IMG/VR virus record: IMGVR_UViG_2695420538_000013
Origin: a virus
Taxonomy: Duplodnaviria; Heunggongvirae; Uroviricota; Caudoviricetes
DNA: 19,994 bases
Reading direction: 5' to 3' (one strand)
The position numbers and the translations under genes were made by a program. Below the pieces are notes generated by a model that was not told the DNA's origin, did not search any database, and saw only the letters and a list, made by a program, of their open reading frames with translations. Positions 5,844 to 6,720 of this stretch are shown one piece after another. Numbering within the stretch: the first letter of the stretch is position 1; each line of letters starts with the position of its first letter.

Positions 5844-5918
5844 GGCTGAACTCCTGAAAATGGCTGTGAAAATATCGCCCGCGAAATGCCAGGCTGATTA
5901 GGAAAACAGGAAAGGGGA

Positions 5919-6209
5919 TTAGCGATTCAGGCCGTTACCGCGTCCGTCGAGAAAAACTTCCACGAGCAAATCACGGGTATAAGTGCGCTCGATGCCGCGA
6001 TGCAGATAAAGCCGTCCGCGTAAATTAGCTGATGCAGTCCAGGTACCATCTTTGTGTTTGACCAGCATTCCTGGCATGACCGCACCTCGATTAACGGTCT
6101 GCGTTCCGTAATGTTGATGAACCATAAAAACTCCTGCCCGTAAGCTGGGCTGCTGAACATATAGAGACTTCTGCGCGTATTCAGGCGGTGGATGGCCGCC
6201 GGTTGTCAT
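5919..6209 (-). CDS. Hypothetical protein, first ORF of the leftward early (pL) operon in the kil/cIII position; likely real start at internal ATG 6125
   Basis: 96-codon open frame. The internal ATG at 6125 (MVHQHYGTQ...) has AGGAG 5 nt upstream, whereas the 6209 start has only a weak GAGG about 10 nt upstream inside a hairpin. No family recognised. Confidence 0.45.
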
Positions 6210-6401
6210 AACTAAGTCGCCTCGTTGAAGCGACTAAGGTATGAAATGTTGAGTTGATTTCAGCTGGTCACACCGACGTTCACGCGTCCGTTTCACCCCT
6301 CGCACTCCCCGAAGCCTGCTGAAATTCAAACTGCGGATCTAAGCGGTCATCGCAACGGTGAATCAGGTGGTTGCCGTATCGTTGTGTTGTTGCGATGAAC
6401 T

Positions 6402-6458
6402 TATTTAAAACTATAGTTGTTTTACCGTCAACAACAAAAGTTGTTTTATTGGTTGTTT
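6402..6458 (-). promoter_or_regulatory. Putative OL/pL: leftward promoter overlapping repeated GTTGTT/AACAAC operator half-sites
   Basis: On the minus strand, TTGACG (plus 6425-6430), a 17-bp spacer, then TTAAAT (plus 6402-6407). Overlapped by GTTGTT-8 bp-AACAAC (6415-6434), AACAAC-aaaa-GTTGTT (6429-6444) and a further GGTTGTT at 6450-6456. The same half-site family recurs in OR. Confidence 0.45.
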
Positions 6459-6720
6459 TAGATATAACTGGTTGTATTTAGGATGGATTTATTTTGTGAC
6501 TTGAATCGCATAGCGATAACTGAAGCGAGGTTATGGTGGTTTTTTTAACGGTGTGTGTGATGAGGGGAGGGCAAAAGAAAACCCGGCACGGTGACCGGGA
6601 TTCTTACGCCGTTAGGTAAAGATATTATTGCGGTGGCTTAATATTACTACCTAGAGCAAAGATAGGAATTAGTTCTTTACTGAATGAGCACAATGCCCAG
6701 TTGATAATTTTTAATTGGTA

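Follow-up and report, generated by a model that had tools for sequence, protein, structure and literature searches.

The transcription cascade of phage lambda depends on the antiterminator N, and N-less lambdoid phages are known, HK022 being the classic case. How an early-left operon is controlled without N was asked here for a lambdoid prophage (IMG/VR record IMGVR_UViG_2695420538_000013; the whole stretch of 19,994 nucleotides (nt) is called the window). The region in question is the interval 5844-6720 between gam and the cI-type repressor gene, which holds kil, a leader of about 270 nt and the leftward operators and promoter (oL/pL). The interpretation towards which we lean, with slightly better than an even chance of being correct, is that of an early-left operon without N: kil and Red would be immediate-early genes, and the leader would act after transcription initiation. 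The most interesting concrete product of the analysis is a covarying, unannotated cassette in this leader, made up of two hairpins (modules C and D) and a mini-open reading frame (mini-ORF).

The interval measured 877 bp (gam start at 5843, cI stop codon at 6721-6723), in agreement with the about 870 bp given by an earlier reading made from the sequence alone. That sequence-only reading also described one small ORF and about 510 bp of noncoding DNA. Kil was indeed the single true gene; the 510 bp did not hold as a single leader and consist of a cI-side terminator, a gevA/ASCH relic, oL/pL and the leader of about 270 nt. On its minus strand, the interval holds an ORF of 96 amino acids (aa; 5919-6209) and, overlapping it in another frame, an ORF of 77 aa; no other ORF on either strand reached 60 aa. 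Pfam and PHROGs gave no match to N or Nun in the interval or in the whole window, and the statement that the interval lacks an N-like ORF of 60 aa or more was upheld. A tblastn search with phi80 N and HK022 Nun gave a best E-value of 0.061, outside the interval; it used these two queries only, and N proteins are very diverse. For nut sites, no boxB-like hairpin was found after pL or after cro, and the pL leader is without boxA-boxB. The closest boxA is CGCTCTTTAACAA at 7758-7770 (plus strand), between cro and the YdaT-type gene, with no hairpin after it.

N is thus absent from the window, and the same layout is found in viable phages, which supports the proposed N-independence. The interval is about 99% identical in the isolated phages PhiR34_1 and Turner, and these and the related 4A7 have the same N-less layout. 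Annotated relatives show the order gam, kil, an optional defence insert, and cI, without N. The leader was found in 2224 of 5426 complete E. coli genomes (about 40%). In other genera, a repressor gene and pL are again directly followed by leader and kil.

Whether antitermination is needed at all depends on the terminators of the operon. The following features are located downstream of the leader:

3993-4018, minus strand: homologue of the lambda terminator tL3, after exo; tL3 is annotated at the equivalent bases in the O276 record
4079-4759, minus strand: exo
4756-5541, minus strand: bet
5547-5843, minus strand: gam
5877-5894, minus strand: weak terminator-like hairpin in the kil-gam spacer, with a 5-bp stem and a poor U tract (terminator scan)
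5919-6125, minus strand: kil, 68 aa, FtsZ/cell-division inhibitor, homologue of Rac KilR
5919-6209, minus strand: the 96-aa ORF that holds kil
5960-5976: weak 6-bp terminator-like site inside kil (terminator scan)

No canonical intrinsic terminator was detected in the scans between pL and exo, where the two weak sites were the only candidates. The spacer with the 5877-5894 hairpin is common to Stx phages that encode N, which show 95-99% identity to the window over the initial 79-82 nt of the interval (5844-5925). The lambda segment with N, tL1 and tL2 is absent from the window. Because this segment is missing and only weak sites precede exo, kil, gam, bet and exo should be reachable from pL without antitermination, and the supposed need of antitermination before the red genes did not stand. 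Positions 3380-4100 are 97.9% identical to lambda, and an independent scan placed the tL3 site at 4018-3996; it is the first documented intrinsic terminator downstream of pL in this operon. A stronger terminator-like site was recorded at 3405-3423. Only genes past tL3 would need read-through.

The function of the leader was approached through its folds. Stability was expressed as z scores relative to dinucleotide shuffles. The consensus fold of the whole leader was unstable, and for this reason only local hairpins were used. The strongest structure, at 6184-6246 (modules C and D, z -6.05), had not been flagged in the sequence-only reading and was the sole thermodynamically exceptional part of the leader. 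The elements of this region are:

6206-6244, minus strand: module C, a hairpin whose base CAUA/UAUG buries the start codon AUG6209 and whose top UUC/GAG buries a GAGG resembling a Shine-Dalgarno (SD) sequence
6184-6200, minus strand: module D, GGCGG-CCAUCCA-CCGCC, which codes for residues 4-9 (G-G-H-P-P-P) of the mini-ORF
6126-6183, minus strand: distal leader, with a GAAGUCU...GUUC motif, a hairpin GCCC-AGCUUAC-GGGC (6150-6136) and the SD sequence AGGAG (6135-6131)

The mini-ORF starts at AUG6209 and reads MTTGGHPPP, with a tail that varies. In most contexts it has 16-21 aa; in the family of the window its stop is lost and the frame continues into kil. Module D is identical in the window, HK225, HK639 and locus L169, and differs by one base in phi80. 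The distal leader is conserved in an alignment with phi80, HK225 and HK639 and nearly invariant in 62 relatives, with a fold z score of +0.74.

HK225, HK639 and further contigs gave divergent matches in an nhmmer search with the leader profile, each of them over the C/D part (6184-6250). The homologues each fold alike, with a CAUA/UAUG outer stem, a variable inner stem topped by UUC/GAG, and then the invariant module D. Using the invariant core, an exact search retrieved at least 120 IMG/VR contigs; among the matches listed, hairpin C occurred in 38 variants with at least 8 unrelated inner-stem sequences. In an alignment of 16 distinct variants, 98.8% of the cells of hairpin C were paired (85.6% in shuffles, 0/500) and 42 cells were compensatory (14 in shuffles, 0/500), with slid controls reaching 31-48% paired. 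Hairpin C therefore covaries while its SD-like and AUG parts stay fixed. Since the search pattern itself fixed the D helix, covariation is uninformative on module D. The window itself shows the complete arrangement, namely the covarying hairpin burying UUAUGA, then GGCGGCCAUCCACCGCC, then GAAGUCU...GUUC before the next gene.

In phi80, C-D lies between two terminators, tL1A (overlapping the stop codon of N) and tL1B (Rho-dependent), and is followed by a small ORF and kil. The HK639 record annotates module D plus a U-run as a terminator; hairpin D of the window is without a U tract. In most copies, C-D is immediately preceded by a U-run of the kind expected from an upstream terminator. Rfam holds no family for the cassette. 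These comparisons show C-D with its mini-ORF to be a widespread, unannotated RNA element that is shared by the N-dependent phi80, the put-dependent HK639 and N-less phages.

The gene that follows the cassette was assigned by homology. Kil matched PHROG 294 (E 1.7e-37) over residues 1-67, a whole-protein match, and Rac KilR with 36% identity (E 8.6e-13). In RefSeq relatives it is called as 68 aa, equivalent to the ATG at 6125 with the SD sequence AGGAG upstream. Among the 62 related sequences, substitutions at third codon positions begin only at 6125, and the 84 nt of 6209-6126 are nearly invariant. The kilR 5' untranslated region (UTR) of Rac, a prophage with YdaS/YdaT-type immunity like that of the window, is regulatory and yields the small RNA (sRNA) KilS (PMC8175672).

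We interpret the interval as the oL/pL control region and leader of a kil-gam-bet-exo operon, in a prophage type that never carries the nutL-N-tL1...tL2 segment. The window looks like phi80 minus nutL-N-tL1A, since C-D of phi80 lies between tL1A and tL1B before the kil block. The operon would be transcribed directly from pL without a processive antiterminator, and transcription would be curtailed only at tL3 past exo. The leader would be a mosaic of a generic 5' hairpin (module A), a family-specific hairpin (module B) and the widespread C-D cassette with its distal part. Hairpin A might contribute to transcript stability. Hairpin C would control initiation at AUG6209 by occluding the start site, and translation of the PPP mini-ORF across hairpin D, with a polyproline stall, would affect the downstream structure and the dosage of Kil. 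Given that Kil is toxic and that the Rac kilR 5' UTR is regulatory, the main task of the leader would most likely be the post-transcriptional dosing of Kil.

The start of the leader and the sequence-only reading's inverted repeats were considered with the following features:

6400-6482, minus strand: oL operators and pL, with five inverted matches (within 6405-6481) to oR/pR at 7441-7484
6348-6396, minus strand: module A, an inverted repeat forming the 5'-terminal hairpin AUCGCAAC...GUUGCGAU (z -1.30)
6253-6329, minus strand: module B, an inverted repeat forming an imperfect long hairpin, UUGAAUUUCAGC...GCUGAAAUCAA, that is CG-rich inside (z -1.63)

The promoter pL has a -35 box TTGACG (6431-6426), a 17-nt spacer and a -10 box TTAAAT (6408-6403). 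The Salmonella phage UPF_BP1 has the same promoter type, and its HK022-type putL begins at the base equivalent to 6396. In phages of different immunity, homology to the window starts exactly at 6396/6395. On account of both observations, the +1 of pL is probably A6396.

Inverted repeats are present at 6347-6356/6389-6398 (10/10) and 6257-6267/6315-6325 (10/11). They are adjacent and not, as the sequence-only reading had it, nested, and neither is exceptionally stable; the minus-strand segment 6205-6400 as a whole (z -1.41) folded no better than the shuffles. The loop of module A is C/A-rich and U-poor (CAACAACACAAC). Its stem is invariant and 7 loop sites are polymorphic; in the third immunity class (class c) half of the module is replaced. 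AUCG-AAC-rich starts like that of module A were found in the pL transcripts of phi80 (with N) and of HK639 and S9-5 (with put), and also in Citrobacter, Kluyvera, Silvania and Enterobacter prophages. Because such starts head N-dependent, put-dependent and other-genus transcripts alike, module A is a generic feature of the 5' end and does not mark an antiterminator or any single mode of antitermination. Module B was confined to the E. coli prophage family of the window (nhmmer) and overlaps an Arg-rich 31-aa ORF at 6234-6329. Under the predicted fold, the stem polymorphisms at 6320, 6256 and 6291 would all lead to G-U pairs, and the majority allele at 6312 would break the inner helix.

Four points weigh against the interpretation as an operon with Kil dosing and no antiterminator. 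Between the SD-like GAGG and AUG6209 there are 10 nt, a long distance for an SD sequence. Modules A and B show some structure-compatible variation that has no explanation in the dosing model. UPF_BP1 holds putL of HK022 exactly where module A sits, and module swaps at the same position in lambdoid phages often exchange functional analogues. Finally, tL3 and the strong terminator-like site at 3405-3423 are inside the operon, and expression of distal genes from pL would need read-through.

There is an alternative in which modules A-B, the first ~145 nt of the pL transcript (6253-6396), or the whole leader would be a new class of nascent RNA. Unrelated to put, it would bind the elongation complex, modify RNA polymerase in cis and make pL transcription resistant to tL3 and terminators beyond it without N. 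It would sit right after the probable +1, like putL and at the very place of putL in UPF_BP1; N is absent, yet tL3 and the 3405-3423 site are retained; and the hairpin stems are invariant or vary only to G-U pairs. Put-like mechanisms have already been guessed for N-less lambdoid phages, as in a 2025 survey that records another N-less phage and supposes put there (PMC12315714). We nevertheless regard this alternative as improbable. Modules A and B fold no better than shuffles, half of module A is replaced in class c, and its 5' motif also heads the N-dependent pL transcript of phi80. Module B is limited to one closely related E. coli family, with copies 95-100% identical, and so allows no real covariation test. 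The put covariance model was negative, and no second copy is present in the pR operon. If correct, this alternative would explain how a lambda-type Red/early-left operon with tL3 kept exists without N in a family present in about 40% of E. coli genomes.

HK022-type put RNAs act through the beta' zinc-binding domain of RNA polymerase and cause terminator read-through in cis. A put-like RNA had been suggested for this leader. A covariance model was built from eight HK022-type RNAs (HK022 L and R, phiEt88, UPF_BP1, CobraSix, S9-5, HK639 and PdC23), which align with clear covariation to a two-stem consensus of about 70 nt with GAACGGC loops and GGCAAU. With filters off, the best score in the window was 9.1 bits (E 0.22) at 1818, and nothing was found at 6126-6396 or past cro, which speaks against the suggestion. 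Hairpin A begins at the probable +1 A6396, the base at which putL of UPF_BP1 begins; this is a match of position only. An inverted-repeat search of 6100-10800 for a second leader copy after pR, as in putR, yielded nothing beyond a 13-mer that has one mismatch. The annotation of HK639 has putL alone, and a putR copy may thus not be universal. The window resembles the put phages (HK022, also HK75, O276, phiEt88, UPF_BP1, S9-5, CobraSix and HK639) in being N-less and in having a structured RNA from the first bases of pL. It differs from them in the missing sequence or structure match, the missing second copy and the unexceptional modules A and B. An Rfam scan of 5400-7900, judged by E-value, gave chance matches only.

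Many N-less prophages whose first gene is kil have a different leader RNA, here called type 3, directly 3' of pL. This RNA is about 100 nt long, has a P1 stem CCACC/GGUGG, a helix with compensatory changes in four of five pairs and a conserved GGCAUAYGAA loop, and is without an Rfam family. Carriers are SPN3UB (L359 6001-6103), L016 (1261-1362), L116-L236 (about 47 variants), mEp237, PHB10, SEN34, Chris1 and Klebsiella phages. The type 3 covariance model scored 98.8 bits on SPN3UB, where the RNA is single-copy. In the window it gave chance-level matches of at most 11.7 bits outside the leader, and it was negative in Rac, phi80 and HK639 as well. A visual impression that the Rac pL leader is of type 3 was not confirmed by the model. 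Type 3 is a candidate for a new leader or antiterminator RNA family.

The Arg-rich 31-aa ORF over module B raised the possibility of a very short N. The peptide encoded at 6234-6329 (...GVKRTRERRCDQLK...) would be an arginine-rich-motif antiterminator that is fused in frame to Kil in most relatives. Its KRTRERR segment resembles the arginine-rich motifs of lambda N and P22 N. The TAG at 6236, which ends the ORF, is CAG in 57 of 63 variants, opening one frame from 6329 via AUG6209 to the kil stop; a 128-aa 'Kil' is annotated in PhiR47_2, and other records do likewise. The ORF has a TTG start, no SD sequence and no family match (Pfam, PHROGs). Its substitutions are 5 synonymous and 7 non-synonymous, unlike the third-position pattern of kil. 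Its Arg codons are no more than the translation of the CG-rich hairpin CGGACGCGUGAACGUCGG. A boxB-like hairpin is absent after pL and cro, the boxA-like site after cro being without a hairpin. Read by eye, the sequence that extends kil upstream in frame in other genera shows about 10 codon differences, only 1 of them synonymous, and its RNA stems are kept. An N-like role of the ORF is therefore highly improbable, and with its polymorphic stop, the lack of an SD sequence and of a family match, and the comparative substitutions the ORF was rejected.

In those other genera, a small GC hairpin GUUCCGCCAGCCUGGCGACAAGGGCAAA and a long hairpin GUGAGCUUCGCGGUGGUG...CACCACCAGCGAAGUUCAC were noted 30-190 nt upstream of kil (L010, L013, L014, L016 and many of L142-L236). 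Their pairing is kept, and the in-frame 'protein' reading varies freely.

The leader might also work on transcription in lysogens. It could be a Rho-dependent or sRNA-responsive attenuator that stops leaky pL transcripts before kil, or the source of a 5'-UTR-derived RNA; in one version the CAACAACACAAC end would pair with the GU-rich R1 seed of the sRNA GcvB. The first 31 nt are poor in U and G (2 U and 5 G), the first AUG comes after about 185 nt, and that of kil after 270 nt. Silencing of the Rac gene kilR by Rho was reportedly established by Cardinale et al. in 2008. The 5' UTR of Rac kilR gives rise to KilS, which is bound by Hfq. Of about 4000 segments of the window, the leader 5' end ranked in the best ten for predicted pairing with GcvB R1; equally good pairing with GcvB was obtained at several further sites of the window. 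The terminator scan found no terminator or processing signal in the leader that would delimit an sRNA, class c lacks the CA-rich part, no homology connects the leader with KilS, and Rho sites are not reliably predictable from sequence. We consider an attenuator or sRNA source possible but unlikely.

Within the leader 5' end, CGCAACAACACAACG (6376-6392, minus strand) is complementary to the R1 seed of GcvB; the prophage anti-sRNA AgvB makes use of this type of target as well (CACAACA). Identity of the CA-rich end with AgvB was ruled out, as AgvB lies 3' of pR' (PMC4104026) and the GcvB pairing is not unique; the resemblance was kept as a lead only.

The window was compared with known systems. 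Like lambda and phi80, it has pL followed by kil, gam, bet and exo, with the lambda tL3 retained. The tL1A-tL1B segment of phi80 is homologous to 6126-6246, and the pL transcripts of both begin alike. The window differs from lambda and phi80 in the lack of N, nutL (boxA, boxB) and tL1A, and hence of the temporal gate of N. With Rac it shares YdaS/YdaT-type immunity, the absence of N, a Kil homologue and a long leader before kil, which in Rac is regulatory. There is no homology between the two leaders; the intrinsic terminator at which KilS ends is absent in the window, and ydaG and ydaF are located between pL and kilR in Rac. KilS of E. coli K-12 Rac is annotated by RefSeq in the kilR 5' UTR (locus L361, 2906-3003).

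Leader ORFs and start-occluding hairpins are known from the lambda cIII mRNA switch and from proline-codon leader ORFs such as that of Salmonella mgtP. The cassette is similar to them in that a hairpin hides the SD sequence and AUG of a short ORF and that PPP codons overlap a GC hairpin, which is annotated as a terminator in HK639. It differs in that a link of the cassette to temperature, EF-P, proline or termination would rest on analogy, and in that the mini-ORF of the window runs into kil. The window belongs neither to the put nor to the N/nut group; it shares a cassette of the tL1 region with phi80 and resembles Rac in its type of immunity and in a kil leader that is presumably regulated.

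Very common prophages of E. coli, and also viable phages, carry a lambda-like Red operon (98% identical to lambda around exo and tL3) and have no N and no put. Should an antiterminator be dispensable, kil and Red would be immediate-early, a different temporal programme that would bear on induction, Kil toxicity and recombineering-type functions. The C-D/MTTGGHPPP cassette, absent from Rfam, offers a concrete entry to translation or termination control of early-left genes.

The remaining part of the interval and the adjoining genes comprise the following features:

6582-6599, minus strand: intrinsic terminator closing the cI-side unit (CCCGGTCACCGTGCCGGG then TTTTCTTTTG; terminator scan)
6606-6679, minus strand: 74-bp relic of the 3' end of a gevA/ASCH-domain gene, by homology to PhiR47_2 and 4A7
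6721-7410, minus strand: cI-type S24/HTH repressor gene
7515-7745, plus strand: YdaS-type cro
7815-8354, plus strand: YdaT-type "cII", followed by O and P

The terminator at 6582-6599 sits just downstream of gevA/ASCH in relatives. Homology to PhiR47_2 and 4A7 extends to 6679 and covers the end of their GevA/ASCH coding sequence. What is inserted between cI and pL varies. In relatives (loci L001, L003, L006 and L007) the gap holds gevA-gevT (toxin-antitoxin), an ASCH gene with a gene for a 353-aa hypothetical protein, or a SIR2-family gene.

The boxA CGCTCTTTAACAA differs from that of rrn (TGCTCTTTAACAA) at one position and agrees with the lambdoid form CGCTCTT(T)A. It is the sole match of such quality in the window and is kept in relatives with the same cro (loci L001, L002 and L006). 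Recruitment of NusB/NusE by this site might give the pR operon an anti-Rho read-through of the rrn type. The 13-mer common to both early leaders with one mismatch reads AAUCAACUCAACA at 6247-6259 (minus strand) and AAUCAACUUAACA at 7776-7788 (plus strand), the latter six bases past boxA in the pR transcript. The 13-mer varies from relative to relative, and a rough estimate of such sharing by chance between two short leaders is 0.01-0.05.

Further RNA-like features were recorded in related loci. Rfam matches to isrB, an Hfq-binding sRNA, were sub-threshold (24-31 bits, gathering threshold 35) in five unrelated loci (L010 1882-1978, L011, L016, L118 and L196 on the minus strand); they lie outside the leaders, antisense, about 180-280 nt downstream of kil. 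The HK639 record contains an 'M3-like RNA' (L237 1711-1770) after the YdaT-type gene in the pR operon.

The prophage is of the DLP12/Bievrevirus type. The right part of the window is DLP12-like, with ren, emrE, a serine recombinase, ybcL/M, ninB, rusA and the Q antiterminator. At the left, insertion sequence-type transposase ORFs (918-1808 and 1805-2131) adjoin a 93-aa integrase-like ORF on the opposite strand (2241-2522), which suggests that this prophage copy is defective with a disrupted left arm. Within the O gene, the palindromic TTTACCYGAATCAGGTAAA is present in 4-5 copies at 8792-8905 (plus strand), presumably the iterons of the origin.

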